Shown one piece after another: positions 5,942-29,669 of a stretch of 32,000 nucleotides of DNA. The stretch's first letter is position 1, and each line of letters opens with the position of its first letter. The stretch lies in the NCBI GenBank assembly GCA_041657425.1, contig JBBABY010000005.1, positions 60,633 through 92,632 on the forward strand. The letters run 5' to 3'. This stretch comes from an archaeon. GTDB taxonomy: Archaea; Iainarchaeota; Iainarchaeia; Iainarchaeales; CSSED10-239. The position numbers and the translations under genes are program-made. Below the pieces are notes generated by a model. It ran no database searches. It was not told the origin of the DNA and saw only the letters and a list, made by a program, of their open reading frames with translations.

Positions 5942-6523
5942 ATGATAATCTTAATATGTGGTTTTTCTGCATCAGGTAAAAGCTATCTAGTTAATTCTGT
6001 GGCAGATAAACTAAACTATAAGCACGTTCATACTTCAGATATTCTTAATCAAATTGCGTGCGGGGTTTCTGAAAAGAAAGTAAATTGTAATAATACAAAA
6101 ATGAACACCGGTTGGTACGAGTTTTCAGGACTTGATGAAAAGCGAAAGAAAACAAATAATATAGATAAGAAATTGGATAAATATCTTCTAAACTTAGTAA
6201 AAACAAAAAACAATATTGTTCTTGATTCTTGGACACTACCATATTTAGTAAAAGATAATAAAAAAGTAATTAAGATTTGGTTAGATGCAACAGAAAAAAT
6301 AAGATCACAAAGGCTTGCATTAAGAGACAAGATAACATACACAGAAGCACATAAGCTACTAAAAAGCAAAGATTCTTTTTCTAAGGAACATTTCCAAGAA
6401 CTCTATGGTTTTACGTTAGGGAAAGACAAACAAGTTTTTGATTTAGTAATTAATACAAATACTTTAAGTATAAAACAAGTAGAACAGAAAACTCTTGATT
6501 TTTTAAAAAAGAAAATTAAGTAG
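5942..6523 (+). CDS. P-loop nucleotide kinase, archaeal cytidylate-kinase-like
   Basis: 193 aa. N-terminal Walker A ILICGFSASGKS; the size and RLALRD motif are typical of small NMP kinases. An AGGAG RBS lies upstream. Confidence 0.5.
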   Translation: MIILICGFSASGKSYLVNSVADKLNYKHVHTSDILNQIACGVSEKKVNCNNTKMNTGWYEFSGLDEKRKKTNNIDKKLDKYLLNLVKTKNNIVLDSWTLPYLVKDNKKVIKIWLDATEKIRSQRLALRDKITYTEAHKLLKSKDSFSKEHFQELYGFTLGKDKQVFDLVINTNTLSIKQVEQKTLDFLKKKIK

Positions 6524-8647: not shown

Positions 8648-8652
8648 CTGCC

Positions 8653-8678
8653 TTTTCTTTTCTTGTAAGAAAAGAAAA
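8653..8678 (+). terminator. T-rich perfect hairpin immediately 3' of tRNA-Gly
   Basis: ttttcttttctt-gt-aagaaaagaaaa has 12-nt perfectly complementary arms. The T-rich 5' arm could act as an archaeal oligo-T terminator. Confidence 0.3.
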
Positions 8679-8774
8679 TGTAAGCTGCCAAAAGAAAAGA
8701 ACTATAAGGTGCCAAAAACGGCAGGTGTCGAAAGAAAACACGAACGATTAAAAAAATAATTAAACGGCAAAATT

Positions 8775-16129: not shown

Positions 16130-16308
16130 CTTTACAATTAGTTTAGAAAATTATGTAATAAACAGTTTATAATCTTTATTGTTAATTTTGGCAATCGCCA
16201 GATTTATATACATTTTTGCTCATAAAATATATATTTGCGGCCAATTTGTAAGGTTATTGTGTGGAAATAGTAAACTATTGCGCGCTAACCTCAAAAAAAA
16301 TACACGGT

Positions 16309-16330
16309 ATTTTTTAGGATCCTAAAAAAT
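16309..16330. repeat. 22-nt perfect palindrome centred on ggatcc
   Basis: attttttaggatcctaaaaaat equals its own reverse complement. It sits in the spacer upstream of tRNA-Ser(UGA). Confidence 0.85.
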
Positions 16331-16346
16331 CAGTGATTTTTTATGA

Positions 16347-16400
16347 GAGCGCAACCGGTTTAGTTAACTAGAGAAGAAACGCCTATGAACTGGGCGAACA
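16347..16400 (+). repeat. Partial copy (C) of the GC-rich tRNA-Ser-associated module
   Basis: gcgcaaccggtttagt ... ctgggcgaac parallels gcaaccagttagt ... ggctgggcgccaac of module A (17157-17198) in the same order and orientation, and ends just before tRNA-Ser(UGA). Confidence 0.45.
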
Positions 16401-16406
16401 GTTAAA

Positions 16407-16489
16407 GCAGAGATGGCGGAGTGGCCAAACGCGCCAGCCTTGAGAGCTGGAGTCGAAAGACTACGCGAGTTCGAATCTCGTTCTCTGCG
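16407..16489 (+). tRNA. tRNA-Ser (anticodon UGA)
   Basis: Acceptor gcagaga/tctctgc, anticodon stem ccagc/gctgg with loop ctTGAga, long variable arm agtcgaaagact, T-arm gcgag-ttcgaat-ctcgt, discriminator G. No CCA. Confidence 0.9.
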
Positions 16490-16513
16490 CTTAAAATTGT
16501 TAAAAGATCATTT

Positions 16514-16867: not shown

Positions 16868-17137
16868 ATGGATAAAATTAAAATAAATTATTTTATTGAT
16901 GTTCTATTAATAATATCATTTATTGTAGTAGCAATAACAAGCCTTGTAATATTTTTCTTTCTTCCAAGTGGAGTAAGACAAGCAGGTTATCAAACATTTT
17001 TAGGATTAACAAAACATTCATGGGGTAATATTCATACAATCTCAGGATTTGCAATGATAATTCTGTCATTGATACATTTGATATTACATTTCAAATGGTT
17101 AACAACAATGTCAAAAACAATATTTAAGAAAAAATAA
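16868..17137 (+). CDS. Small membrane protein, DUF4405-like
   Basis: 89 aa with two or three TM helices. WGNIHTISGFAMIILSLIHLILHFKWL resembles DUF4405. Confidence 0.5.
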   Translation: MDKIKINYFIDVLLIISFIVVAITSLVIFFFLPSGVRQAGYQTFLGLTKHSWGNIHTISGFAMIILSLIHLILHFKWLTTMSKTIFKKK

Positions 17138-17149
17138 TTTAGTTGTGTG

Positions 17150-17271
17150 TCGATAAGCAACCAGTTAGTGCCATACAAATTCTGGCTGGGCGCCAACTCA
17201 GGAAAACAAAAGTTTTCAGGATGCCAAGAAATCGCAGCGACGATTTGTTGTGCACGACCGCAACCGGTTGT
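17150..17271 (+). repeat. GC-rich non-coding module A abutting the 5' end of tRNA-Ser(GGA)
   Basis: Contains gcaaccagtt (17157-17166), ggctgggcgc (17184-17193), hairpins gaaaac-aaaa-gttttc (17202-17217) and aaatcg-cagcga-cgattt (17229-17246), and gaccgcaaccgg (17256-17267). An inverted homolog lies at 28208-28282. Confidence 0.6.
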
Positions 17272-17354
17272 GCAGAGGTGGTGGAGTGGTCAAACGCACT
17301 AGCCTGGAAAGCTAGAGTCGAAAGACTACGCGAGTTCGAATCTCGTCCTCTGCG
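17272..17354 (+). tRNA. tRNA-Ser (anticodon GGA)
   Basis: Acceptor gcagagg/cctctgc, anticodon stem ctagc/gctag with loop ctGGAaa. The variable arm and T-arm are identical to those of tRNA-Ser(UGA). Discriminator G, no CCA. Confidence 0.9.
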
Positions 17355-17570
17355 ATTAAATTTAGATCAACAGTTTGCTGTAAGTGAGCTTGTAGACTGG
17401 ATTAAAGGCAAGAAGCTCGCCCACGACTACGAAACAGGACTAATTTCTAAAATCCCGCTAATCTTCGAAGATACTCAAAAACATACGTACGTTTCTGAAA
17501 AGTGTTCTCAACAAAATCTTTTTAAATACAATATACAATAACTATTTATAGAAATAAAGTGTGATAAAAA

Positions 17571-18248
17571 ATGGTTGTAAGAAAATTAACAAAAGGCAGT
17601 TTCCCAAATGCAAAAAATATTAAGAGCATTAAAATAGGAGGTCGTAAATTCGTTGCAGAAAAGAAACAGACAGCAGACATAAAACTAGAAATAAATAAAG
17701 AAAAAATTAAAATAATCAGTTCTTTAAAAAAACGTCTAGAGAGAGGAGAATTAAAATTAACCAGTGCCGATTTAATGAAATTAAAGGCACAGGGAATTAG
17801 CCTGATTGAATTAAGAAAAGTAATAGCTCCAGAATATTTGTTAAAAACTTTGAGTTTAAAAGCATTTGTAAAAATATATGGTCAAGAAGATGTAGTTAAG
17901 GCTTTTAATGGTATTTCCCGATTAATATTTGATGCTGGTTTGAGGGAGACAGTTTATGCTATTGATCCAAAATATTTTAAAAATGAATTTTCATTAAAAG
18001 AAATTGTGAATAAGCTTTTTAAATACGGCTACAAGGATGTGTCACAGTATAGGGCCCCAGATATGCAAAGCTATATGTCACAAAATGGACGTTATGAAGT
18101 AGCAAAGGCTTGGGGGCTTAAGAATATAATAGAAACATTTGGGATTAAAGAGACTATGGTGGCTATGGGTAGATCAGAATCTGAACTTAGATCTTTATTA
18201 AATGCATCAGATTACGATTTAGGGAAAGCTTTTCCTCGCGAATATTAG
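17571..18248 (+). CDS. Hypothetical protein (lysine-rich N-terminus, no recognisable domain)
   Basis: 225-aa ORF of non-repetitive composition. Its TAG stop (18246-18248) overlaps the first bases of the tRNA-Ser 3' fragment. Confidence 0.55.
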   Translation: MVVRKLTKGSFPNAKNIKSIKIGGRKFVAEKKQTADIKLEINKEKIKIISSLKKRLERGELKLTSADLMKLKAQGISLIELRKVIAPEYLLKTLSLKAFVKIYGQEDVVKAFNGISRLIFDAGLRETVYAIDPKYFKNEFSLKEIVNKLFKYGYKDVSQYRAPDMQSYMSQNGRYEVAKAWGLKNIIETFGIKETMVAMGRSESELRSLLNASDYDLGKAFPREY

Positions 18249-18287
18249 AGTCTCACGACTACGCGAGTTCGAATCTCGTCCTCTGCG
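18247..18287 (+). repeat. tRNA-Ser 3'-end copy 1 (variable arm + T-arm + 3' acceptor strand)
   Basis: agagtctcacgactacgcgagttcgaatctcgtcctctgcg compared with the intact 17314-17354 agagtcgaaagactacgcgagttcgaatctcgtcctctgcg. They differ only in the variable-arm loop. Followed by a T-run. Confidence 0.85.
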
Positions 18288-18312
18288 ATTTTTTATTTTG
18301 TGTTTAAATTGC

Positions 18313-19710
18313 TTATTTCAAAAACACACACTCTTCATTTTTTATTCGCGGATATTTTTTGTTTGACCAAGCAATTGTTCCACCAGAAATGTGAATAGCA
18401 TTATATCCTTCAATAATTAAATTTTTTGCAGCTTTAAAGGACTTTTCTCCAGTTTCACAAATAAGATAGATGTTGTTTTCTTTTTTTATTTTTTGTTTAT
18501 AGTTTTTTATAAAAGCATCCATCGGTATGTTTGTAAATCCAGGAATGTGATAATCCCCAAATTTATTTTCAATTCTTAGGTCTATAAAAATATTGTTTGG
18601 ATTTCTTTTAATGTCTGTATTTAATTTTTCAGAATAGGTTTCTTTAAGTATTTTATAAAGTTTAGTTACAGTTATAGAATCTACTTTATCTTTTGTATGT
18701 TTAGTTGTAATTTCATAAGGAAGTAATTCTTTGTTAATTACTTTTGGAAAATCAGACGTTGGAAGATATGAAAAATATTCATCTAGATATGGTAATGGCG
18801 TGTCGTAACAAATAAATACGCAAGTTTTATTCTTAAGTTTATTTCTCTTAATATATTCTAATAACCCTGCAAGAGCAAACCCAGAACTTGGGCCAACTAA
18901 TAATCCGCTTCTAATTAATTTTAAGCTTTGGGTATAAGATTCAACACTTCCAATCTCGATAATATCATCTGCATTATTCTTCCAATCAAAAGCAATCATT
19001 TTCAAAAGATTTTTTGTTCTAACGCCTGGTACTAAGTTATTTGGTTTTCTTATTACCCCTATTGCCTTGAGGTTATCGTTTTTCTTCTTTAAGTAATTAC
19101 TAGTTCCAAGAAAGGTTCCAGTTGTTCCAAGTCCTGAACAAAAGATATCAATCTTTCCATTTGTTTGAATCCAAATTTGTTTTCCTGTTATCAAACTATG
19201 CGAATTAGGATTATTTAAATTATCATATTGTCCAAAGTTAATATATTTCTCAGATTTAGCCATTTGTTTAGCCTTATAGATCCCGCTATTTTCATCATCT
19301 GGATCTGGACAAATTGGTTCATTATTAATAATCGGAGTAATCCCAAATAACCTTAGCATATTTAATTTATTTTTTGTAACTTCATTTGAAACAAATGCTT
19401 TCATTGAATTTAATCCATAATGCCTGCCAATTATTCCTAAAGAATAAGCAGTATTCCCTGAAGAATTTTCTATGATTGTAGGTTTATTTTGTAATTTCTT
19501 TTGAATATGTGCTGAATTAATCATCTCATATGCAGGAATAGATTTAATATTAAGTAAAGGCAAAGTGTTTTGTAATTTTGCAAATATTCTAATCCCATTT
19601 TTTCTAAAAGGATTACATTTATCATCAAGCTCTACAAGAGGAGTCATATGATTATGAGGATTGATATAATCCTTTATTGCATTCTTTCCAGAATAAACAT
19701 TATTTTTCAT
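18313..19710 (-). CDS. PLP-dependent cysteine synthase/CBS-family enzyme fused to a C-terminal rhodanese domain
   Basis: 465 aa. LLNIKSIPAYEM (PLP-Lys region), ENSSGNTAYSLG and SGLGTTGTFLG (phosphate loop). The C-terminal about 100 aa carries IYLICETGEKSFKAA (rhodanese active-site Cys loop). Confidence 0.8.
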   Translation of the reverse strand: MKNNVYSGKNAIKDYINPHNHMTPLVELDDKCNPFRKNGIRIFAKLQNTLPLLNIKSIPAYEMINSAHIQKKLQNKPTIIENSSGNTAYSLGIIGRHYGLNSMKAFVSNEVTKNKLNMLRLFGITPIINNEPICPDPDDENSGIYKAKQMAKSEKYINFGQYDNLNNPNSHSLITGKQIWIQTNGKIDIFCSGLGTTGTFLGTSNYLKKKNDNLKAIGVIRKPNNLVPGVRTKNLLKMIAFDWKNNADDIIEIGSVESYTQSLKLIRSGLLVGPSSGFALAGLLEYIKRNKLKNKTCVFICYDTPLPYLDEYFSYLPTSDFPKVINKELLPYEITTKHTKDKVDSITVTKLYKILKETYSEKLNTDIKRNPNNIFIDLRIENKFGDYHIPGFTNIPMDAFIKNYKQKIKKENNIYLICETGEKSFKAAKNLIIEGYNAIHISGGTIAWSNKKYPRIKNEECVFLK

Positions 19711-19716
19711 AATCTT

Positions 19717-20661
19717 TCATTTAAATTTAAAATTAAGATCGATCTGAGAACTTAGATCTCCAAATCTGTCTTTAATGCTTGGTTGAGAAACATATTTCGT
19801 GTGTAATAATTGAAGTCTAGACAATCTTTTGTTTGGGTCAGGAGTAATTTTATTAATCTCTAAATATAGTTTTTCTAATACTTCTAAATTGTTAGTTTCA
19901 AATTTATCTAAAGTAACTGCCCCACCGTACTTATCAAGTAATTGTAGATATTTAGAATCTCTAATAAATCCAATTATTTTTTCTGCACCAACATTGTCTA
20001 TTAAAAATTTTAAATCATCTTCATTTTTTATTTTATTTCCAAGAATAAAGAAATTATCAACATTGTTTTTGCTTAAGTTTTCAAACATTTTAAACAATTC
20101 TACACTTTTTTTTGTAGGCTCTACAATTAGTACAATTGCATCAAACTGCAAATGCATTGAAGATGCAAATAAATCTGTTCCTGCAACCATGTCAGAAACT
20201 ATATATTCATTTTTATCGTATGTGTGACTAAGAATAATTTCTAAAATTTCAAGATTGTTATGATAACAACTAGTTCCTACACCGTGGACTTCATAAGTTC
20301 CAACAACTGCTAAGTATGCATTATCTGAAATCTCTTTACAGAAATTAGAAATAAAATAATCTTCTTTAGTAATTGTTATTAATTTAGAATTAACAGAAGG
20401 AGGAGTAGTCTTTCTAAATTCGTCATTATTTTTTATAAGATCGTTTGTTCCTTTTAAGTAGTTTTTAATTTTTAATTTTAGATTATTATTTGAAATATAT
20501 TCTTCAGAAGACACTGTACAATTAAATAACTCAGGAAGATGCACATTTATGTCTGCATCAATCACAAGTACAGGTTTTCCTTTAGAAATAATTAATTTAC
20601 TAAATAATGCAGAAAGGGTAGTTTTACCAACGCCGCCTTTCCCAACAAATGCTATTCTCAT
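19717..20661 (-). CDS. SIMIBI-class P-loop ATPase, CooC/MinD-like
   Basis: MRIAFVGKGGVGKTTLSA (deviant Walker A), VIDADIN, and IVSDMVAGTDLFASS...IVLIVEPTKKSVE (CooC-like switch region). I use the Met at 20661 rather than the 17-codon hydrophobic extension in the track. Confidence 0.75.
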   Translation of the reverse strand: MRIAFVGKGGVGKTTLSALFSKLIISKGKPVLVIDADINVHLPELFNCTVSSEEYISNNNLKLKIKNYLKGTNDLIKNNDEFRKTTPPSVNSKLITITKEDYFISNFCKEISDNAYLAVVGTYEVHGVGTSCYHNNLEILEIILSHTYDKNEYIVSDMVAGTDLFASSMHLQFDAIVLIVEPTKKSVELFKMFENLSKNNVDNFFILGNKIKNEDDLKFLIDNVGAEKIIGFIRDSKYLQLLDKYGGAVTLDKFETNNLEVLEKLYLEINKITPDPNKRLSRLQLLHTKYVSQPSIKDRFGDLSSQIDLNFKFK

Positions 20662-20724
20662 ACATATATATATTTTTCTTCCTTTATATATATTAATGAT
20701 AACCATTATCAATAAGGATAAAAT

Positions 20725-21084
20725 ATGTCTAAATCAAGAAGAACTATACAAAAAGAACTAATTTTAAAAGAAATAGAAAACATGAAAGTTTTCTTCTCTG
20801 CAGCAGAACTTTATAGTAGAATTAATTCTAAACACAAAATTGGTATTGCAACAATATATAGAATTCTTAATCAGCTAACTAAAGATTATATTATTTATTC
20901 ATTTGTTTGCGATAAACGAAACATTTATTCAAAACACGGAAGAAACCACTGCCATTTCGTTTGTGAAGATACTGGCGAAATTATTCATTTTAATATAGAT
21001 TCTTTAGATTTCTTAAAAGATAAACTTCCTGGAAAAATTATTTCTTTTCAAATAGAAATAAAAGGTATTAAAAATAAGAAATAA
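20725..21084 (+). CDS. Fur-family transcriptional regulator
   Basis: 119 aa. RRTIQKELILKEI...FSAAELYSRIN...IGIATIYRILNQL (Fur wHTH) followed by HCHFVCEDTGEIIHF (metal-site region). Divergent from the ATPase/PLP-enzyme pair. Confidence 0.75.
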   Translation: MSKSRRTIQKELILKEIENMKVFFSAAELYSRINSKHKIGIATIYRILNQLTKDYIIYSFVCDKRNIYSKHGRNHCHFVCEDTGEIIHFNIDSLDFLKDKLPGKIISFQIEIKGIKNKK

Positions 21085-21184
21085 TGATATATTTAGTTTT
21101 ATAAATTAAATATAAATTTTTTTATAGAAAACCACTTTTTATAAATTATTTCTTTCTATTGTTGTTTAAGGGGGGAGACAAAAT

Positions 21185-21493
21185 ATGACAAATGTATTTA
21201 AAGAATTTAAAGAGTTTTTACAAGAGTATAAAGTAATTGGCTTAGCAATTGCTTTTATTATTGGTGCGGCAATTACAACACTAGTAAAGTCTTTAGTTGA
21301 TAATATCATCATGCCAATAATCACACCATTCATTCCTGGTGGGCAATGGCAAACTGCAACATTAAAGCTTGGTCCAATAGTTCTAAACTGGGGCGCATTT
21401 GCTGGGGCATTACTTAATTTCATAATTATTGCTTTTGTAGTATTTATGATTGCAAAATATATGTTTAAAGAAGAAACAGTTACAAAAAAGTAA
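21185..21493 (+). CDS. mscL: Large-conductance mechanosensitive channel
   Basis: 102 aa. FKEFKEFLQEYKVIGLAIAFIIGAAITTLVKSLVDNIIMPII is the MscL TM1 signature, followed by a second TM helix. Confidence 0.85.
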   Translation: MTNVFKEFKEFLQEYKVIGLAIAFIIGAAITTLVKSLVDNIIMPIITPFIPGGQWQTATLKLGPIVLNWGAFAGALLNFIIIAFVVFMIAKYMFKEETVTKK

Positions 21494-21572
21494 GTAACTT
21501 TCTTTTTTATTTTTTTAGTAAGCGGCTAGTGAAAGAATGTGACTTGCAAAAAAGTATCGGTACTAGAATGCG

Positions 21573-21613
21573 AGAGTCTCACGACTACTCGATTTCGAAT
21601 CTAGTCTTATGCA
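21573..21613 (+). repeat. tRNA-Ser 3'-end copy 2 (degenerate)
   Basis: agagtctcacgactactcgatttcgaatctagtcttatgca has the same variable-arm variant as copy 1, but the T-stem and acceptor have decayed. Confidence 0.6.
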
Positions 21614-21739
21614 ATTCAATTCTAAGTAAGCATTTTGCGGCAAGTTGATTTGTATCGCGTGCATTGACTAAATTGTTTTAGATATATTTTTAAATTAGTT
21701 CTTATTAGTATATTTAGATTTTTATAAAGGAGGAATAAT

Positions 21740-22204
21740 ATGTTAAAAGAATTATCTATGAGCGAATATATTACAAAGTACACATCTATTTTACATTTAG
21801 GTGCTGGAATTTTATATATACTATACGGAATTGGATTATTAGTCCTTAAAAATTTCGCATCAAATCTTACTTCAATGTCAGGATTATTTGGCAGTGCATT
21901 TTTAAAAAATATGACTATTGGTCTTGCAATAATATTATTTATTGCAGGAATTTACACTTTATTAACAGCATATGGCCTTTGGGGGTATAAAAATTTTGGA
22001 AGAATAATGTTGTTAATAGAAATGTATGCTTTGGCTGCATTAATTGCAATAATGTTAATTATTTCAATATTTTCAATAATTACATTTTGGCAAGTTGGAT
22101 TAATCTATTTCCTTGCAATGATGTATTTGGGATTGATTATCTTTTTAAGCATATATCTATTCCAAGCACATCCAGAAATGGTTGCCCTTTTCAATAAAAT
22201 GTAA
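21740..22204 (+). CDS. Hypothetical integral membrane protein (about 4 TM)
   Basis: 154-aa hydrophobic ORF preceded by AGGAGG (21729-21734). Confidence 0.55.
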   Translation: MLKELSMSEYITKYTSILHLGAGILYILYGIGLLVLKNFASNLTSMSGLFGSAFLKNMTIGLAIILFIAGIYTLLTAYGLWGYKNFGRIMLLIEMYALAALIAIMLIISIFSIITFWQVGLIYFLAMMYLGLIIFLSIYLFQAHPEMVALFNKM

Positions 22205-22274
22205 AACACATTTTTGCCCAATTCTTTGGGCACATTTATTTTATTAGATAGTAATAGATAAATTAGGGAATATC

Positions 22275-22925
22275 ATGAATAATGAGCCAGTAACTAATAC
22301 AAATAAAGAATATCCTAAAAAAAAAGGGATATCTGTCAAATTTTTAATATCTCTTGGTATAATTTTAATAATTATAATTTTGGCAGTTATTTTGGTTTCC
22401 AAAGCAATATATAATAGAGATATTAGTACAAATATAAATAATTTTGATGAATGTATTGAGGCAGGAAATCCCGTAGTTGCGGGGACTTATCCTATACAAT
22501 GTAAAACACTAGACGGAAAACTATTTATTTCTACTTCAGATAATATTGAGAATAAACCTAAGCATGTTGATGATTTAATATTTGTAGAAAGACAAGCAAC
22601 TAATTTTGAGGAATGTTTAAACTGGGGTTTCGTTTCCCAAGGTTATCCTGAATATTGTACAGATGGGAATTCTACATTTATTAATCCTAAACATACAAGT
22701 GCTCCAACACTAGCAGAACAACAGATTTGTAATACTGATAGCGAATGTACAGGACTGCCAAATCCTTGTCATAGAACAAGGGTATGTATTAATAAAAAGT
22801 GGGTGTCTTTTTACAAAATTAAGCCAGCAGCGTGTACTTTAGAAATAGATCTTTTAGCAGTGTCTCCTGGAGATTGTGTTTGTCTAAATACAGTCTGTAC
22901 AAATAAGAAGTTAATTCAAAGTTAG
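22275..22925 (+). CDS. Membrane-anchored cysteine-rich secreted protein with an internal duplicated motif
   Basis: 216 aa with an N-terminal TM. Two repeats, NFDECIEAGNPVVAGTYPIQCKTLDGKLFIS and NFEECLNWGFVSQGYPEYCTDGNSTFIN, are followed by a Cys-rich tail. The TAG stop overlaps tRNA-fragment copy 3. Confidence 0.6.
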   Translation: MNNEPVTNTNKEYPKKKGISVKFLISLGIILIIIILAVILVSKAIYNRDISTNINNFDECIEAGNPVVAGTYPIQCKTLDGKLFISTSDNIENKPKHVDDLIFVERQATNFEECLNWGFVSQGYPEYCTDGNSTFINPKHTSAPTLAEQQICNTDSECTGLPNPCHRTRVCINKKWVSFYKIKPAACTLEIDLLAVSPGDCVCLNTVCTNKKLIQS

Positions 22926-22964
22926 AGTCTCATGACTACGCAAGTTCGAATCTCGCCATCTGCG
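22924..22964 (+). repeat. tRNA-Ser 3'-end copy 3 (partly degenerate)
   Basis: agagtctcatgactacgcaagttcgaatctcgccatctgcg. Confidence 0.7.
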
Positions 22965-22999
22965 AATTATTATTTAATAAACTATTTTGTGAAAAAAAC

Positions 23000-23326
23000 A
23001 TGACTAGAAAAAAAGACGCAGGAGAATTGTTACATTATTTTTATAAATCGTCTATAGTTGATCACTCCATTTCTGCAGAAGATTTACTAAAAGAAATAAG
23101 ATGGGGAAGTTGGAGATTAGAAAAAGCAATTAAATATCTAAGAGATGTTGATGCGATTGAAATTACTCTATTTAAAGAAAAGATTGAAAGATTACAAAAG
23201 TTTGTAATAGTGGGCCTAACAAAAACAGGTATCCAAATAATAGAAGATAAATCCAAATTTAAAACCACTTTCGGATTTGAAATAAACTTAGAGAGCACAA
23301 AGTGGAGTTGGAATACTAAACGATAA
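23000..23326 (+). CDS. Small hypothetical protein, possible winged-helix
   Basis: 108 aa. WRLEKAIKYLRDVDAIEI...GLTKTGIQIIED. A TATA-like ttatttaataa lies 20-30 nt upstream of the ATG. Confidence 0.5.
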   Translation: MTRKKDAGELLHYFYKSSIVDHSISAEDLLKEIRWGSWRLEKAIKYLRDVDAIEITLFKEKIERLQKFVIVGLTKTGIQIIEDKSKFKTTFGFEINLESTKWSWNTKR

Positions 23327-23331
23327 ATATT

Positions 23332-23348
23332 GCGCGCGAGCTGAACGC
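23332..23348 (+). repeat. Short fragment (D) of the GC-rich module
   Basis: gcgcgagctga (23334-23344) is the exact reverse complement of tcagctcgcgc in module B (28223-28233), and the match continues as cgc after one mismatch. It sits in an unusually GC-rich 80-nt spacer. Confidence 0.35.
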
Positions 23349-23411
23349 TGTCGTTTTTGGGATGAAGCACTTTTTCTAAAAGGGCTCCACTGGACAGCTA
23401 CCCCCGAAAAC

Positions 23412-23419
23412 TTTAAACA
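23412..23419 (+). promoter_or_regulatory. TATA-like box for the exonuclease gene (leaderless layout)
   Basis: tttaaaca lies 22-29 nt upstream of the ATG at 23441. The promoter-to-ATG segment resembles the one at 24356-24388. Confidence 0.35.
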
Positions 23420-23440
23420 CTATTTCTTTCATAGTTATTT

Positions 23441-24025
23441 ATGAATTACTTATATGTAGATATCGAAACTGTTCCTGTGGATAAGGAAAAACATTTATCT
23501 CTAGATGAAGAGGAAAGAAAGAAACTCTTAAATCCAATTGATTCAAAAATTATTGCAATCGGTCTAAAGTCAACTAAAGATAATAAGCTAGTCATTCTTC
23601 AATCTGATAATGAAAAGGAAATGTTAACTGAATTTTGGAAGATTTACGACAATTTTAGAGCAAATAGTTCTTTAACAAACAAGATTGTGGGCTTTAACAT
23701 TAAGCAGTTTGATATTTCTTTTTTAGTGACTAGAAGCTTTGTTAATGGAGTTACAGTTGTTCCTTTCGTCTTAAAAGAGATAATCGACATTAGAGACCTA
23801 TTAACTTGCTTTAAAAGAGGGCCAACAAGAGGCACTTTAAAGGAATTTGGAGAGATTATTGGCGTGGTCTTAGTAGAAGACATGGACGGCTCAAAAGTGG
23901 CTGAAACTTACTGGTCAGGAAATATTGATTTAATCAAGACTTACTTAGCAAAAGACATAGAATTAACTGAAAAGATTCACAACAAGGTAATGGAACTAGG
24001 ACTAGACAAAATAAGAGAATGGTGA
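23441..24025 (+). CDS. DEDD-type 3'-5' exonuclease, PolB-exonuclease-domain-like (RNase H fold)
   Basis: 194 aa. LYVDIETVP (Exo I), VGFNIKQFDISFL (Exo II) and YLAKDIELT (Exo III). Confidence 0.7.
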   Translation: MNYLYVDIETVPVDKEKHLSLDEEERKKLLNPIDSKIIAIGLKSTKDNKLVILQSDNEKEMLTEFWKIYDNFRANSSLTNKIVGFNIKQFDISFLVTRSFVNGVTVVPFVLKEIIDIRDLLTCFKRGPTRGTLKEFGEIIGVVLVEDMDGSKVAETYWSGNIDLIKTYLAKDIELTEKIHNKVMELGLDKIREW

Positions 24026-24096
24026 AATATCTATTTAAATATTTAATGTTCATATATATTACTACAAGACTATAATATTTGGAGAAATGATAAAAC

Positions 24097-24327
24097 ATGG
24101 AAAGACAACCAGTAGATGACAATAACCATAAAATGATTGGAAATATAGTTTCAATTGGATATGATCCAGAATTAGAAGTTCTAGAAGTAGAATATCAATT
24201 AGGCTATTTATACCAATATCTTAAGGTTCCTAAAGAAACTTACGACAAATTAATGAACGAAAGAAACAAAATTACATTCGTTCAAGAAAGAATCGCAAAA
24301 GTTTATAAAAATCAAAGAATCAAATAA
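24097..24327 (+). CDS. KTSC-domain small protein
   Basis: 76 aa. IGYDPELEVLEVEYQLGYLYQYLKVPKETYDKLMN fits the KTSC pattern. GGAG RBS at 24081. Confidence 0.55.
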   Translation: MERQPVDDNNHKMIGNIVSIGYDPELEVLEVEYQLGYLYQYLKVPKETYDKLMNERNKITFVQERIAKVYKNQRIK

Positions 24328-24355
24328 GATTCTTTATTTTTAATTTTTAAATAAG

Positions 24356-24363
24356 TTTAAATA
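24356..24363 (+). promoter_or_regulatory. TATA-like box for the 24386 gene (leaderless layout)
   Basis: tttaaata lies 23-30 nt upstream of the ATG at 24386. The 14 nt atagttatttatga ending at the start codon are identical to those at 23441. Confidence 0.35.
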
Positions 24364-24385
24364 ATCTCTTTTTCTATAGTTATTT

Positions 24386-25114
24386 ATGATAAGTAAAAAT
24401 TCTGAACAAAGTTATAGAGAAATTATTTTACTTATACACCCATTATTCAATTTATTTCTAGATAAAATTAGTAGAATAAATTTCAATAATAAGGAAGAGC
24501 TATTAAAATATTTAGTTGGAAGAGAACCATTATTGATTAATTTAAAAGAAACAGTTAAAGATTATGCAAAAATTATTCTAAAATATAAAAATAAAAAAGG
24601 CGCATTATTTGTTTTAATTAATCCGGCAGCAAATAGTTCTCTTTCTTTTAATGTAGATGGCAAGAAAGTAAATTGGAAAAATTTGCCAGAATGTCAAGCA
24701 CTATTTTCTATAGTAAATATCATAAGTGCTTTTGGAAGAAAAGAGTTAGGTGAAAGATTTGTAATAACTAATTTTAGTCCGGAAGACGGTTACACAAAAT
24801 TATTTTCTGAGAAAATCTATAATAAATTAGATAAATATCTAGAAATAAGAGCTTTTGGAGAATACACTGATGGTTGTGTTTATGATATTTCAAATAGAGT
24901 TGTTGAAGAATTACAAAACAGAGAATTTAGAATAATGGACTTAGAGACTTTAAGAGATCATTGTATATCACTAAACGAGATAGAAACGAAACTAGATAAG
25001 CTATTAGAAGAAAAAAGGAAAGTATCAAAAATTAAAGAAAATCAACAAAAGAAAGAACAAATTCAAAAAGTAGTTTCTATGTTAAATAATTATAAGAAAT
25101 CCAAAGCAAAATAA
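24386..25114 (+). CDS. Hypothetical protein, no confident family
   Basis: 242-aa ORF with a lysine-rich coiled-coil C-terminal tail. ILLIHPLFNLF ... AFGEYTDGCVYD weakly resembles the isochorismatase/cysteine-hydrolase core (unverified). Confidence 0.5.
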   Translation: MISKNSEQSYREIILLIHPLFNLFLDKISRINFNNKEELLKYLVGREPLLINLKETVKDYAKIILKYKNKKGALFVLINPAANSSLSFNVDGKKVNWKNLPECQALFSIVNIISAFGRKELGERFVITNFSPEDGYTKLFSEKIYNKLDKYLEIRAFGEYTDGCVYDISNRVVEELQNREFRIMDLETLRDHCISLNEIETKLDKLLEEKRKVSKIKENQQKKEQIQKVVSMLNNYKKSKAK

Positions 25115-25199
25115 ATTATAGTTTTTAGCATACAAATCTTTAAAAACCCTAAGATATTATATTAATTTAGATATACTTAAATTATTACATTGAATATTT

Positions 25200-27776
25200 A
25201 TGGCTATAGAAAAATATAAAGCAGATAAAGAAGAGAAAGATTTCTTTGAAAAAATAGAAGATGAACCAGCAGAAGAAGAGTTAATTGATACCGTTAAAGA
25301 AAAAAAAGAAAAGATAAAAGAAATATCTCCAAAGCTTGAATTTTTAACAGATCCAAAGGATCCAGAAATGGTCTATATTGGAAGAAAAAAAAGCGTTCTA
25401 AAGGATCATGGTTCTAAGTCTTGTGCATTCTTAGGAAAGGTTTATGAGGATGATTGTAGAGATAAAAAGGTACATCTTGATGGATTAAACCCTCATGTTG
25501 TGTTTATAGATGGTTCAAGAGGATCAGGTAAGAGTTATGGCCTTGGGGTAATTGCTGAAGAGTTATCTGCAAATAATCCATATATTGGACAGATTGTTGT
25601 TGATCCAGTAGGTGTCTTTTGGTCCATGAAATATCCAAATCAAGAAAAGAAAGAACTAGAGGAATTAATTGCTTGGGGATTATCTCCAAAAGGTTGTAAT
25701 AATTTAAAAGTTTTTGTTCCAGAAGGAGTAGTAAGTAAAGTTTCAAAAGAAACATATGATGAAACTTTTTCAATGTATCCATCTTTACTTTTAGCAGAGG
25801 ATTGGTGTCTAACTTTTGGAATTGATAGATTTAATCCAACAGGTTTACTTCTTGAAAAAACACTATCTTTCGTAAAAACGGGTTATAAAGCAGGAGATCC
25901 AAGTAAAGATGATGTTCCTGAGCAGGACATTCCTTCTAAAGGAAATCTTTACACATTAGAAGACATAATTTTTTGTTTACAAAACGCAATGGAGTTTAAG
26001 TCTTCTTCAACAGGTTATAAGCAAGATTCAATAAGAGCATTAGTTTCAAGATTTGAAGCAGCAAAGGCTTGGGGAATATTTAGTGATCACGGTACACCAC
26101 TTTCAAAGCTTTCAAAGGAAAGACAATTGACAATTCTTGATACTAGTTTTTTAGATGACAATATCACAGCACTAGTTATTGGAATATTAGCAAGAAGAAT
26201 ACTTTCTGCAAGAAAGTTAGTAACAAGACAAGATGCAATTAAAAAGTTTGATGATAATTCAGAAAGTCCTGATGATCTTCTAGAGATATCAATTCCTCCA
26301 ACTTGGGTGTATATTGATGAAGCTCACACATTAATACCTTCTGGTAACACAATCACTCCAGCAACAAACGCAATAATTGAATATGTTAAGCAAGGAAGAA
26401 GACCAGGTTGTTCAATGGTTCTTGCCACTCAGCAACCTTCTGCAATCAACTCCAAGGTTCTTTCTCAAGTTGATATTTTCATAAGCCATAAGCTTGTTTT
26501 CAATGACGATATCCACGCAGTTCAGAAAAGAATGCCTGCAATTATTCCTGAGGCTTACAAGGATCCTAATTTCATAAAGACACTTCCAGTAGGTGTTGCA
26601 TTAACTGGAGATAGAGGAGAAGAAACAAAAAGAGCATTTATCTTAAAAATAAAACCAAGACTAAGTCAACATGAAGGAAGAGATGCAGAAACAATTAGAG
26701 AGGTTCCAACATTAGGAAAAAAAGAAATAATTAATTTTTGTTCAGACATGGTATATAAGAAATTAGTTGCTTCAAAAACTTTAAAGACAACTGATGCAAA
26801 AGATTTGCTTGACGTAATTAATTCAAAGTACAATAGCGAAATAACATTTAATGAAGTATTAATCTCATTAAGTAAGATGGGTGTTGTTGAAAAAGAAAAC
26901 ATCTTAGTGTTTGCAAACAAAAGTCAAAAACAAAAAACAGAAATATCAAAAGAAGAAATAGAAAATATTAATCAAGCCATTGAGTATTCAAATGCAGTTG
27001 ACCAAAACCCAGAACTTAGAGAACCTGCTCCAGAAATAGAGCCAGACTACAAGCCAGTTCTTCCTCAAAGGATTTCAAGAGAAATAGCAATTAATATTGC
27101 AAGTAGAACTAATAAGAAGAAGTTCTTTTTTATTAAAGAAGAAGAATCAATTACTCAAATACATATAGTTTACAGAAAACTATACAAAGTAATTTACAAT
27201 ATCTTTGATGAAGAAGAAAATTATATCACTCATAATTGTTTCATAGATTCAATAACAGGAGAATTCATACATTTTGATGGAGTTGATTTTAAGGAGTCAA
27301 CTGGTTTTAATCTTGTTGATGATTTAACTGTTGATGATATTATATTACTAGATAAAATCTTTGCTTGGAGGACTCCAGAAGAGTTGTCTGAAGAATTAGA
27401 AGCAACTCCCGAACAAATAAAAGAAGATTTAATTTCTCTAGTTGACAGAGAATTAGCAGATGTTGATTTAATAAATAAACAAGAAGCTTTCAGAATTAAA
27501 AGAAAAATAGATGTGCCATTTTCCCCAAAGCTTTCAATTCTTTCTTCAGTAACTGATCTGCCATTAAAGAAGCAATTAATCCCAATTGTAGAAGATGAGG
27601 AAGAAATATCAAAAGAAGAAATTGATGAGAGATTAAATAAGTTATGGCAAAACATAGAAGTAGTAGACATTGAAGAAGTCTTTTGGCCAATCTGGGAAAT
27701 TAATTCAAGAGACAAAAGAGCAAATGATAGATTTGTTCTAGTTGATGCAGTACTTGGTCAAATAGTTGATGCTTAA
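25200..27776 (+). CDS. HerA/FtsK-superfamily (DUF87-type) P-loop ATPase with a long C-terminal extension
   Basis: 858 aa. Walker A VFIDGSRGSGKS, Walker B WVYIDEAHTLIP, GRRPGCSMVLATQQPSAI and FISHKL motifs. An acidic N-terminal tail and a C-terminal extension of about 370 aa are not typical of HerA. Confidence 0.8.
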   Translation: MAIEKYKADKEEKDFFEKIEDEPAEEELIDTVKEKKEKIKEISPKLEFLTDPKDPEMVYIGRKKSVLKDHGSKSCAFLGKVYEDDCRDKKVHLDGLNPHVVFIDGSRGSGKSYGLGVIAEELSANNPYIGQIVVDPVGVFWSMKYPNQEKKELEELIAWGLSPKGCNNLKVFVPEGVVSKVSKETYDETFSMYPSLLLAEDWCLTFGIDRFNPTGLLLEKTLSFVKTGYKAGDPSKDDVPEQDIPSKGNLYTLEDIIFCLQNAMEFKSSSTGYKQDSIRALVSRFEAAKAWGIFSDHGTPLSKLSKERQLTILDTSFLDDNITALVIGILARRILSARKLVTRQDAIKKFDDNSESPDDLLEISIPPTWVYIDEAHTLIPSGNTITPATNAIIEYVKQGRRPGCSMVLATQQPSAINSKVLSQVDIFISHKLVFNDDIHAVQKRMPAIIPEAYKDPNFIKTLPVGVALTGDRGEETKRAFILKIKPRLSQHEGRDAETIREVPTLGKKEIINFCSDMVYKKLVASKTLKTTDAKDLLDVINSKYNSEITFNEVLISLSKMGVVEKENILVFANKSQKQKTEISKEEIENINQAIEYSNAVDQNPELREPAPEIEPDYKPVLPQRISREIAINIASRTNKKKFFFIKEEESITQIHIVYRKLYKVIYNIFDEEENYITHNCFIDSITGEFIHFDGVDFKESTGFNLVDDLTVDDIILLDKIFAWRTPEELSEELEATPEQIKEDLISLVDRELADVDLINKQEAFRIKRKIDVPFSPKLSILSSVTDLPLKKQLIPIVEDEEEISKEEIDERLNKLWQNIEVVDIEEVFWPIWEINSRDKRANDRFVLVDAVLGQIVDA

Positions 27777-27791
27777 AAGAAGGAAAAACTT

Positions 27792-28127
27792 ATGTTAGAT
27801 TTACTTAAAAAAAAAGAAGATACAAAGCTTAGTGTTGATTCATTTATTTTAGACTCATGTAAAGCAACACCTGGTTTTGAGTTTTTCCCTAAGAAATCCA
27901 CAAAGATTGATTTAGAGAAATTATTAATGACTTTAAGGACAAAGAACTACTATATAGAAAAAGATAATTCTCCATTTCTAATAATTATAAAAACAAAAAA
28001 AGGAACAGTTACTATTTTTAGTTCATTAAAAATAATAATTAGAGAAACAACACAAGAAAAAGTTGCAAAAGCAATACTTACTGATCTCTTAAAAGTAATA
28101 AACGATTTTTTGTATAAGCAAGGGTGA
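27792..28127 (+). CDS. Small protein with a TBP-repeat-like motif, probably co-translated with the ATPase
   Basis: 111 aa, starting 15 nt after the ATPase stop and preceded by gaagga. FLIIIKTKKGTVTIFSSLKIIIRETTQEKVAKAI resembles one TATA-binding-protein repeat (tentative). The last 10 nt overlap tRNA-Ser(CGA). Confidence 0.5.
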   Translation: MLDLLKKKEDTKLSVDSFILDSCKATPGFEFFPKKSTKIDLEKLLMTLRTKNYYIEKDNSPFLIIIKTKKGTVTIFSSLKIIIRETTQEKVAKAILTDLLKVINDFLYKQG

Positions 28128-28207
28128 CTGAGTTCGGTTGAAGGTGCTAGTCTCGAAAACTAGATGCGGTTTATACCCGCACATGGGTTCAAATCCCATT
28201 CCTTGCG
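28118..28207 (+). tRNA. tRNA-Ser (anticodon CGA)
   Basis: Acceptor gcaaggg/tccttgc (one G-U pair), anticodon stem ctagt/actag with loop ctCGAaa, long variable arm tgcgg-tttatac-ccgca, T-arm atggg-ttcaaat-cccat, discriminator G. No CCA. Confidence 0.9.
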
Positions 28208-28282
28208 TAGAGCCGGTTGCGGTCAGCTCGCGCCCAGCCTGGTTTGAATATCATGCACTACTCGGTTTCGCTTGCGCACAGT
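28208..28282 (-). repeat. GC-rich module B, an inverted homolog of module A, abutting the 3' end of tRNA-Ser(CGA)
   Basis: ccggttgcggtc (28213-28224) and gcgcccagcc (28230-28239) are exact reverse complements of 17256-17267 and 17184-17193. The next 40 nt or so resemble the reverse complement of 17150-17183. Confidence 0.6.
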
Positions 28283-28388
28283 GGTTAATCTCCTAAACAG
28301 ATTATAAGGTTTAACCCTAATTAAAAAGAGGTATTTATATAAACTTTATATCATAATCTATTTATAGAAATCAAAGGAGATTTAAATA

Positions 28389-29669
28389 ATGAATAAAAAA
28401 ATATTAATTGGAATTTTTATAGTATTAATAATAGGTGTTGCAACAGCAGGAGCTGTTGCGTTTTTAAGACCTTATAATCCATTAACTCCACCATCAGTTG
28501 ATGATACTGGATTAACAACAGAAGGAATACAAGAAGTAGCAAATGCCAATAATAAGTTTGCAATTGATGTCTATAAACAAATAACTGCAACGAATAATGA
28601 CAATGTTTTCGTTTCTCCATATAGTATATCTTCAGCATTAGCAATGACTTATGAAGGGGCAAATGGTCAAACTGCAGATGAAATGAAAGCAGTTTTTAAT
28701 TTTCCTGAGACCGATTTAATGAGGCCTAACTTTGCAGCAGTTTATAATATAATTAATAAAGAAGATAAGCAATATGAACTAAGGACTGGAAATGCTTTAT
28801 GGATTCAGAAAGATTATACGATTTTATCTAATTATCTTTCAACAGTTGAAAAATATTATGGTGGTAAAGCAGTAAATTTAGATTTCATAAATGAAACTGA
28901 AAAATCTAGATTAACAATTAATAGTTTTATTGAAGAACAAACAAATAATAAAATAAAAAATTTGATTCCAGTAGGTTTAATTTCAGGAGATACAAGACTT
29001 GTTTTAACAAATGCAATATATTTCAAAGGTAAGTGGGATGTAGAATTTAATAAGGATAATACAATAAAAAGAGAATTTAGAACGCCAACAGAATCAAAAG
29101 AAGTTTTGACAATGTTTATGGCTCCAAAACCAGAAGAATTATTTAATTATTTTGAAGATGAAGAACTTCAAGCAATAGAGTTGCCTTACAAAGATAAAGA
29201 ATTATCAATGGTAATAATACTTCCAAAAGAAGATAATGTTTTAACAACACTAGAGCAATCTCTTACCTCTGAGAAATTAAATGAATGGACAAGTAATTTA
29301 AAAGAATCAAGAGTTGATGAAATTTATTTTCCAAAATTTGAATTTGATTCAGGTGCAGAATTAAGTGAGATATTAAAAGATATGGGAATGCCCACAGTAT
29401 TTTCGGCTTCAGCTGATTTTTCTAAAATGACTGGAAATAGGGAATTATCAATTGGTGCAGTAATCCATAAAGCATTCATAAAAGTAGATGAAGAAGGTTC
29501 AGAAGCTGCAGCAGCAACTGCAGTAGTAATGAGGGACACTGCTGTGGGGCCAGGAGATACGCCACCTAAAACAATATTTAAAGCAGATCATCCATTTCTT
29601 TTTTTGATTAAAGAAAACAGCACAGGAACGATCTTGTTTATGGGAAGAATCAATGATCCTTCCTCTTAG
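28389..29669 (+). CDS. Serpin-family protease inhibitor with N-terminal membrane anchor/signal
   Basis: 426 aa. NVFVSPYSISSALAMTYEGANGQTADEM, TNAIYFKGKW, hinge EEGSEAAAATAVV and DHPFLFLI are canonical serpin motifs. N-terminal hydrophobic helix ILIGIFIVLIIGVATAGAVAF. Confidence 0.9.
   Translation: MNKKILIGIFIVLIIGVATAGAVAFLRPYNPLTPPSVDDTGLTTEGIQEVANANNKFAIDVYKQITATNNDNVFVSPYSISSALAMTYEGANGQTADEMKAVFNFPETDLMRPNFAAVYNIINKEDKQYELRTGNALWIQKDYTILSNYLSTVEKYYGGKAVNLDFINETEKSRLTINSFIEEQTNNKIKNLIPVGLISGDTRLVLTNAIYFKGKWDVEFNKDNTIKREFRTPTESKEVLTMFMAPKPEELFNYFEDEELQAIELPYKDKELSMVIILPKEDNVLTTLEQSLTSEKLNEWTSNLKESRVDEIYFPKFEFDSGAELSEILKDMGMPTVFSASADFSKMTGNRELSIGAVIHKAFIKVDEEGSEAAAATAVVMRDTAVGPGDTPPKTIFKADHPFLFLIKENSTGTILFMGRINDPSS

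Follow-up and report, generated by a model that had tools for sequence, protein, structure and literature searches.

We analyzed a 32,000-nucleotide stretch of an archaeal chromosome (contig JBBABY010000005.1 of GenBank assembly GCA_041657425.1, positions 60,633 to 92,632; hereafter the window), in which short GC-rich modules flank serine tRNA genes. Our focus is on two of these: module A, which forms the 5′ leader of tRNA-Ser(GGA), and module B, an inverted copy lying about 11 kb away in the 3′ trailer of tRNA-Ser(CGA). The unit-2 cores of A and B have a GC content of ~70%, compared to 21–40% GC per 500-nt bin in the AT-rich window; the host is a DPANN-type archaeon with 28% GC. The tRNA genes were called with ARAGORN and with a scan of the entire window against Rfam at gathering thresholds, which returned no Rfam family beyond four tRNAs, and permissive Rfam scans of 17100–17275 and 28205–28390 yielded only noise.

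The modules are built from a repeat unit of ~28 nt, in which a short GC-rich hairpin of 6–7 bp is followed by a conserved AACCGGTT-like tail. Each unit comprises an element Ha (YTGYGYGY; e.g., TTGCGCGC, CTGGGCGC and CTGCGTGT), a linker of 4–6 nt, an element Hb (GNGCGMAACCRG) and a terminal TT or CT. Ha, a loop of 5–6 nt and the 5′ part of Hb make up the hairpin, and the conserved single-stranded tail is often the palindrome AACCGGTT. Both A and B consist of two such units with a spacer of ~20 nt between them. The features in the window are as follows:

8577: tRNA-Gly(CCC) (Rfam/ARAGORN)
16278–16358, + strand: third module copy, in the leader of tRNA-Ser(TGA), with Ha TTGCGCGCT, a type 2 cassette and Hb GAGCGCAACCGG
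16407–16490, + strand: tRNA-Ser(TGA), complete
17143–17269, + strand: module A, two forward units that form the 5′ leader of tRNA-Ser(GGA); unit 1 at 17143–17166, spacer at 17167–17183, and unit 2 with Ha at 17184–17193 and Hb at 17256–17267 plus the tail TT
17198–17254, + strand: two-hairpin cassette (type 1), 57 nt, at the 3′ edge of the unit-2 hairpin loop
17271–17355, + strand: tRNA-Ser(GGA), complete (Rfam 58.7 bits, with the 5′ end at 17272, 4 nt past the CCGG end of module A)
23330–23342, + strand: truncated copy (Ha and linker, TTGCGCGCGAGCT), past the orf108 stop codon, with no tRNA adjoining
28118–28207, + strand: tRNA-Ser(CGA), complete (Rfam 50.1 bits), its 3′ end 5 nt from module B
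28213–28281, − strand: module B, two inverted repeat units in the 3′ trailer of tRNA-Ser(CGA); on the + strand, reverse complement of Hb at 28213–28224, linker AGCTC at 28225–28229, reverse complement of Ha at 28230–28239, spacer at 28240–28262, and the second unit with the reverse complement of Hb at 28263–28271, TT, and the reverse complement of Ha at 28274–28281

The positions of the tRNA-Ser genes and the sequence following tRNA-Ser(CGA) are as given in the initial annotation, which had also recognized B as an inverted copy of A from a 12-mer and a 10-mer that are exact reverse complements. We found these to be the only such matches in the window: GACCGCAACCGG occurs exactly only at 17256 (+) and 28213–28224 (−), with a one-mismatch copy at 16347 (+), and GGCTGGGCGC only at 17184 (+) and 28230–28239 (−). 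Dinucleotide shuffles of the window give ~0.01 and ~0.04 expected chance matches, respectively, which bears out the claim that the matches lie beyond chance. On the B side the similarity extends past the exact cores, over ~28211–28281. With the 57-nt insert removed, A aligns to the reverse complement of B with 60 identities in 89 columns, 16 substitutions and 13 gap positions, i.e., 79% identity over 76 ungapped columns. The stretch of 62 nt in A said to be replaced by 5 nt in B corresponds to 17194–17255 and AGCTC, and the CCGCAACCGG end of the module indeed faces the tRNA in both A and B.

Relatives of the locus were retrieved via the CTP synthase (PyrG) gene located 1 kb upstream of A, together with a metagenome scan anchored on the module/tRNA-Ser junction; their contigs are denoted by L numbers. 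Identical module A cores are present in the orthologous leaders of L002, L020, L022 and L028. In L003, a 21-nt sequence occupies the place of window positions 28208–28316, and the element boundaries of module B were drawn from this comparison. A short form of the module is found in L019 at the position of the third copy. The truncated copy at 23330 is also present in L022 and is missing at the same place in L003, L002, L105, L109 and L111.

Between the third copy and the tRNA at 16407 lies a conserved 45-nt hairpin element. This ~45-nt element, AGTTAAC...CGCC-UAUGAACU-GGGCG...AGTT, recurs in tRNA-Ser(TGA) leaders (window 16362–16406; L007 9790–9835, − strand; L027; L109), where it forms a small hairpin with a conserved ACGAACU-like loop. 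In some genomes it separates the module from the tRNA, and in others it lies on the upstream side of the module.

Anatomy of the repeat unit and its nested cassette

We aligned 18 distinct units from ~15 contigs, which share conserved cores and have a variable linker. In the hairpin register that matches columns 1–7 with 14–20, 76% of the cells are paired across the 18 units. Column pair 4–17 is C-G in 13 units, G-C in four and U-G in one, and is broken in none. The covariation score is 0.218 versus 0.146 in shuffles, and was reached by one of 500; an alternative register, matching columns 1–8 with 15–22, showed no covariation. A unit may stand alone, be paired with a second one (as in A and B), or be part of a tandem array with a period of ~52 nt. 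Direct arrays of at least five units are seen at L004 976–1205 (−) and L025 506–740 (−), situated between the pyrG promoter region and tRNA-Ser(TGA). Their 52-nt period corresponds to one unit plus a conserved 24-nt spacer, and the number of units differs between the contigs.

The L022 leader is identical to A except that GGCTGGGCGC-CAAC is joined directly to C-GACCGCAACCGG; since L022 has only CAACC at this point, the true insert in A is 17198–17254. In L002, flanks like those of A enclose a different, type 2 cassette of ~53 nt at the same point. Two more pairs of empty and filled cassette sites are provided by L019 versus the window and by L109 versus L007, and the cassette always enters at the loop's 3′ edge. 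The cassettes fall into two families, both of which are represented in TGA-type as well as GGA-type units; each family folds into two hairpins whose stems vary between relatives yet stay paired by inspection (e.g., UGCC...GGCA versus CACC...GGUG). Applied to whole leaders, MAFFT/RNAalifold recovered no more than a part of hairpin 1, which we attribute to the alignment not being structural. An nhmmer search of 450 kb of loci placed cassettes inside leader modules only; by eye, cassette-related hairpins in forward orientation were also seen beside inverted units in the trailers of L103, L119 and L121. Judged from the empty and filled sites, the 57-nt piece in A is a separate nested insertion.

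Three other identities for the module were tried and rejected. First, for a derivation from the tRNA-Ser 5′ half, local alignments gave p values of about 0.06–0.8 and no tRNA-like match. Second, the motifs of known RNAs, namely a split signal recognition particle RNA, RNase P RNA, and C/D or H/ACA small RNAs, are lacking. Third, A and B might together make up a single structured RNA, each contributing one half of a rod with a four-way junction; this was dropped because relatives have the module as short forms, arrays and partnerless inverted copies, that is, as an ordinary repeat.

Distribution and polarity at tRNA ends

Forward copies occupy the tRNA-proximal part of the 5′ leader in tRNA-Ser(TGA), (GGA), (GCT) and (AGA), ending 4–5 nt before +1, and were found on contigs L002, L004, L005, L007, L016, L017, L019, L020, L022, L024–L028 and L109. 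Inverted copies directly follow the 3′ ends of three tRNAs, with gaps of 5 nt for tRNA-Ser(CGA) in the window, 3 nt for tRNA-Thr(TGT) in L026 and 2 nt for tRNA-Ser(TGA) in L115. Further out, rearranged or truncated inverted copies occupy the tRNA-Ser(CGA) trailers of L103, L104, L105–107, L119 and L121. The tail end of the unit faces the tRNA in all tRNA-flanking copies. The same leader sites are empty in L003, L022, L007, L019 and L027, and the same trailer sites in L003/L114, L108, L109/110, L111–113 and L115–117.

Copies away from tRNAs also exist. One is found between two open reading frames (ORFs) at L026 2338–2364. Another is an in-frame unit of 30 nt in the gene for HerA (L105 7498–7524, L106 2410–2436), within a hypervariable Lys/Glu-rich linker near the N-terminus, where it adds ~10 residues (ITARESERNRL) relative to L103. 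A hidden Markov model of the unit, run on ~360 kb of archaeal loci, detected no further copies. Positions no more than 50 nt from a tRNA end make up ~1% of the window sequence, yet they hold three of its four copies. The possibility raised in the initial annotation, that the module is a dispersed repeat indifferent to tRNA ends, is therefore half right: dispersed, non-tRNA copies exist, but the repeat prefers tRNA ends. At the loci read, the family is dispersed yet strongly tied to tRNA flanks.

The leaders of the window lineage are 50–170 nt long, and those without a module are still 50–80 nt in L003, L007, L019, L022 and L027. In the more distant, Iainarchaeum-like L115, TATA-like boxes abut tRNA-Ser(TGA) and (GGA) (5380–5422 and 6020–6065), so that the leaders are near zero, and the module is present in a trailer only. 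A distinct set of AT-rich hairpins, CTTTTCTTTT-GTAA-AAAAGAAAAG, lies directly 3′ of several tRNAs (Gly-CCC, Ser-TGA and Ser-CGA; window 8649–8700, L002 8085–8125 on the − strand, L103 10416–10450, L119 and L121); these may be terminators or a second repeat family.

We looked for hallmarks of transposition at these sites. Neither in HerA (L105 versus L103) nor in the tRNA-Ser(CGA) trailer (versus L003) was there a target-site duplication or a clean insertion boundary. No terminal inverted repeats or target duplications were seen at filled and empty sites, including the cassette sites in L022 and L109, and no insertion sequence was seen in ~450 kb of loci around the region. In viral contigs, three module patterns gave chance matches only: the two unanchored patterns matched only contigs of 48–73% GC, and the tRNA-anchored pattern matched no tRNA gene.

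Together, the copies constitute a repeat family with a hairpin-plus-tail structure, marked by patchy distribution, arrays, nesting, truncation, a copy within an ORF, and fixed polarity at tRNA ends. B is an inverted two-unit copy of this lineage-specific family of short GC-rich repeats in tRNA flanks. In our interpretation, copies would be tolerated there, and the complementarity between A and B would be a by-product of common descent in opposite orientations; we place the probability of this explanation as a whole at roughly 0.7. Forward copies would be transcribed within long pre-tRNA 5′ leaders and cut off by 5′ processing, and inverted copies would be transcribed in 3′ trailers and cut off by 3′ processing. 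As flank copies would thus be processed away, such sites could tolerate insertions, and copies might consequently accumulate there. Recombination or a transposition-like process would be responsible for the gain and loss of copies and for their truncation, merging and exchange. Recombination or gene conversion between tRNA-Ser paralogues, which are 88–95% identical, could create new copies by carrying the leader along; L024 and L028 have a TGA-type leader on a GGA tRNA. Some insertion process would be needed to give the trailer, intergenic and ORF copies. The hairpin loop is a hot spot for the two-hairpin cassette.

L028 has two tRNA-Ser(GGA) genes, at 115–198 and 5742–5826, with different leader types: one is a TGA-type unit carrying a type 1 cassette, and the other is of the GGA type and identical to A in the window. 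Its tRNA_bind protein is 100% identical to that of the window, and its DUF4405 protein 40%, which suggests recombination or mosaicism around the tRNA-Ser genes.

Several points weigh against reading the copies as passively tolerated repeats. First, mobility can be deduced from the patchy distribution only, as we found neither a transposase nor terminal inverted repeats nor a target-site duplication. Second, contigs with proteins that are 10–25% or more divergent have identical cores, and A unit 2 with its cassette is identical in L028, whose neighboring DUF4405 protein is only 40% identical; such core identity fits purifying selection, and hence function, as well as it fits recent spread. Third, passive tolerance alone leaves the strict tail-to-tRNA polarity unexplained. 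Moreover, transcription of A and B is putative, and every locus was retrieved through tRNA-Ser or its neighboring genes.

The alternative to which these points lead is that the modules are functional parts of pre-tRNAs, in which stable GC-rich hairpins, placed where leaders and trailers have their outer ends, act as processing, termination or protection signals. The strong association with tRNA ends, the invariable orientation of the tail to the tRNA, the high conservation of the cores across diverged contigs, the stem pair with a compensatory change, the presence of all wobble pairs on the forward strand, and the cassette stems that vary between relatives yet by inspection stay paired all speak for this alternative. 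Against this, close relatives have the same tRNAs without any module (L003, L022, L109, L111 and L115), copies sit in an ORF and in non-tRNA spacers, and truncated copies persist. Furthermore, the trailer copies are transcribed as the complement, in which the hairpin is weak because U-G pairs turn into C-A mismatches. We accordingly consider a functional role of this kind unlikely.

Gene order, leader–trailer complementarity and neighboring genes

A different view of the same inverted repeats was that they bracket positions 17272–28207 as an invertible or composite mobile segment. What recommends it are the perfect 10- and 12-nt cores at both ends of the segment and the remnants of integrated DNA inside it. 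Gene order in relatives contradicts this view. L003, a 382-kb contig with 78% PyrG identity, is devoid of A, B and the third copy. Its genes nonetheless have the order and orientation of the window: PyrG, tRNA-Ser(TGA), tRNA_bind, DUF4405, tRNA-Ser(GGA), MscL, orf108, KTSC, an exonuclease, HerA, the TBP-like gene, tRNA-Ser(CGA), a serpin, orf349 and YdjM. L109 and L115 are likewise collinear with the window, such that in these three relatives, each missing one or both repeats, the core genes keep their orientation and the segment is neither inverted nor absent as a unit. Since L003 has the same gene order without A and B, the stretch between the two modules is ancestral and is not a mobile or invertible segment with the modules as its ends. 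For the ORFs of 17.5–28.1 kb, scans against Pfam and precomputed Pfam matches further revealed no recombinase or transposase in or beside the segment, and the same repeat is found at other tRNAs without a partner.

The integrated DNA would have a separate source. Downstream of tRNA-Ser(GGA) are three partial direct copies of the tRNA-Ser 3′ end (18245–18298, 21571–21624 and 22922–22975), which are 74–100% mutually identical. The blocks that they delimit are missing from L003 and encode orf225; a pyridoxal phosphate (PLP)/rhodanese protein with ParA-like and FUR proteins; and two membrane ORFs. The copies look like att remnants of successive integrations at tRNA-Ser(GGA), with no integrase left. 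The extra DNA of the window among them would thus stem from old integrations at this tRNA, unrelated to A or B, and the tRNA-fragment ladder accounts for it without recourse to the modules. Hence, we deem it highly improbable that the two modules represent inverted terminal repeats of an invertible or composite mobile segment.

The initial annotation had also pointed out that the leader of tRNA-Ser(GGA) and the trailer of tRNA-Ser(CGA) would be complementary if both are transcribed, and folding agrees with this. An RNA co-fold of 17130–17271 with 28208–28300 has a predicted energy of −98.6 kcal/mol and ~62 intermolecular base pairs between 17135–17269 and 28211–28287. The gain over separate folds is −35 kcal/mol, compared to −2.8 ± 2.2 for shuffled B. 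The pairing is physically plausible because each copy shares the transcribed strand with its tRNA and is not separated from it by an oligo-T stretch. We found no signal of selection for it: between A and the reverse complement of B there is no excess of G-U-keeping changes, with four differences that keep G-U (T in A, C in the reverse complement of B) against three other transitions and nine transversions that break pairing. The parts of A and B that match exactly are those conserved family-wide. We therefore argue from these sequences that the complementarity would follow from B being an inverted copy by common descent, and that it would join no RNAs.

A functional pairing could take the form of leader and trailer copies on different pre-tRNAs pairing in trans, namely A with B, and the tRNA-Ser(GCT) leader with the tRNA-Thr trailer in L026, thereby coupling or regulating maturation or yielding small RNAs. 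The A/B co-fold of −98.6 kcal/mol lies 14 standard deviations beyond the shuffles, and the window and L026, the only contigs with both a full forward and a full inverted copy, have identical cores in each, which leaves a small probability for functional pairing. Common descent explains this match, there is no surplus of wobble-compatible substitutions, and inverted copies without a forward partner within 10 kb are known from L103 and L115, as are many forward copies without an inverted partner on contigs of 7–21 kb. In addition, the trailer copies of L103, L119 and L121 are rearranged or truncated with no matching changes elsewhere. Pairing in trans is therefore quite unlikely in our estimate. 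The more specific proposition that forward leader and inverted trailer copies are maintained as matched pairs, whose flank RNAs form duplexes upon release by RNase P and tRNase Z, seems to us very unlikely. Were it true, different tRNAs could be coupled through these duplexes in their maturation or abundance, or the duplexes could enter a small-RNA pathway; this would amount to an archaeal tRNA-flank antisense system with RNA ends set by the tRNA processing enzymes.

The complementary flanks had further been compared to those that join tRNA pieces in the split tRNA genes of Nanoarchaeum equitans. The topology is alike, in that a tRNA with a GC-rich trailer is complementary to the GC-rich leader of another tRNA. 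Nevertheless, both tRNAs are full-length cloverleaves. The junction has no bulge-helix-bulge: by inspection, a 14-bp helix is followed by a 2 × 4 internal loop by the tRNA ends. Orthologs of the same tRNAs in L003, L109, L111 and L115 are missing the flanks. As all three tRNA-Ser genes of the window are complete and those of relatives do without modules, this is not a split-tRNA arrangement, and we give joining of this type virtually no credence.

The neighboring genes are archaeal, and an overlapping independent contig that runs past the window end has genes for TBP, ribosomal protein L21e, Rpb4 and DUF655. The small TBP-like protein encoded beside tRNA-Ser(CGA) has homologues from archaeal metagenome-assembled genomes, one record being named Candidatus Iainarchaeum, which points to a DPANN-type lineage. 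On the evidence of these genes, the chromosome is archaeal and belongs to such a lineage. The metagenomes in which the lineage was recovered are from activated sludge and digesters. The small TBP-domain protein has an ORF (27792–28127) that reaches 10 nt into tRNA-Ser(CGA), an overlap that all relatives retain. We see no promoter belonging to tRNA-Ser(CGA) alone, which suggests that it is co-transcribed with the HerA and TBP-like genes.

Parallels with known repeats and significance

Among known systems, the closest parallels are the mitochondrial GC clusters; Neurospora mitochondria, whose tRNA genes are flanked by GC-rich palindromes, offer a second close one. The GC clusters are GC-rich palindromic elements of AT-rich yeast mitochondrial genomes, sporadic between strains, for which "merger and shuffling", stand-alone and merged forms at one site, and occasional locations inside genes have been described (PMC4478555). 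The archaeal repeat is similarly short, GC-rich, hairpin-capable, set in an AT-rich genome, patchy in close relatives and sometimes in genes, and one homologous site can hold a stand-alone copy in some cases and a merged or nested one in others. It differs in residing on the chromosome of an archaeon (free-living or episymbiotic) rather than in an organelle, in being a polar hairpin with a tail that always points to the tRNA rather than a simple palindrome, in having no AG/ACT target duplication at filled sites, and in forming direct tandem arrays. Direct adjacency to tRNAs is what it shares with the Neurospora palindromes (Yin et al. 1981, cited in PMC4478555). For these palindromes, a role as processing, termination or protection signals was proposed.

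Bacterial repeats offer a second set of comparisons. Like repetitive extragenic palindromes (REPs), bacterial interspersed mosaic elements (BIMEs) and MITEs (miniature transposable elements with inverted repeats), the units are short multi-copy non-coding hairpin repeats that are mostly extragenic and vary in presence between strains (PMC10969869). The seven-position stem, 76% paired, matches the short imperfect palindrome of REP/BIME elements, and the multi-copy, dispersed, presence/absence pattern that of classical MITEs. Unlike these elements, no terminal inverted repeats, target-site duplication or GTAG-like REP head was found, nor any associated REP-associated tyrosine transposase (RAYT) or insertion sequence in the loci read; the arrays of L004 and L025 are direct, not alternating, and the archaeal repeat strongly prefers tRNA ends. 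Rickettsia palindromic elements measure ~100–150 bp and are often found in ORFs (PMC10969869). The in-frame copy in the HerA gene of L105/L106, which adds ~10 residues in a variable linker, recalls them, whereas the archaeal unit is only ~28–30 nt and a single case within an ORF was seen. With the split tRNAs of Nanoarchaeum equitans and with rRNA processing stems, the modules share GC-rich complementary sequences outside mature RNA ends that could pair. They differ in that the partners are on separate genes 11 kb apart, the tRNAs are complete, there is no bulge-helix-bulge, and the pairing is not kept in relatives. The searchable literature yielded no account of this type of repeat from DPANN archaea, a weak negative.

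Our analysis removes two attractive readings of this locus, a mobile 11-kb island and a split-tRNA-like system, and documents a repeat family in their place. This has practical consequences. In annotation, GC-rich repeat blocks of this type can mimic structured RNA genes or the inverted repeats of mobile elements. In assembly, inverted copies 5–11 kb apart can cause misjoins. It also raises the mechanistic question of what directs a 28-nt element to tRNA ends. For pre-tRNA processing, the family draws attention to a host lineage with unusually long, variable leaders. If our description holds, small AT-rich archaea would have a counterpart of the mitochondrial GC clusters.

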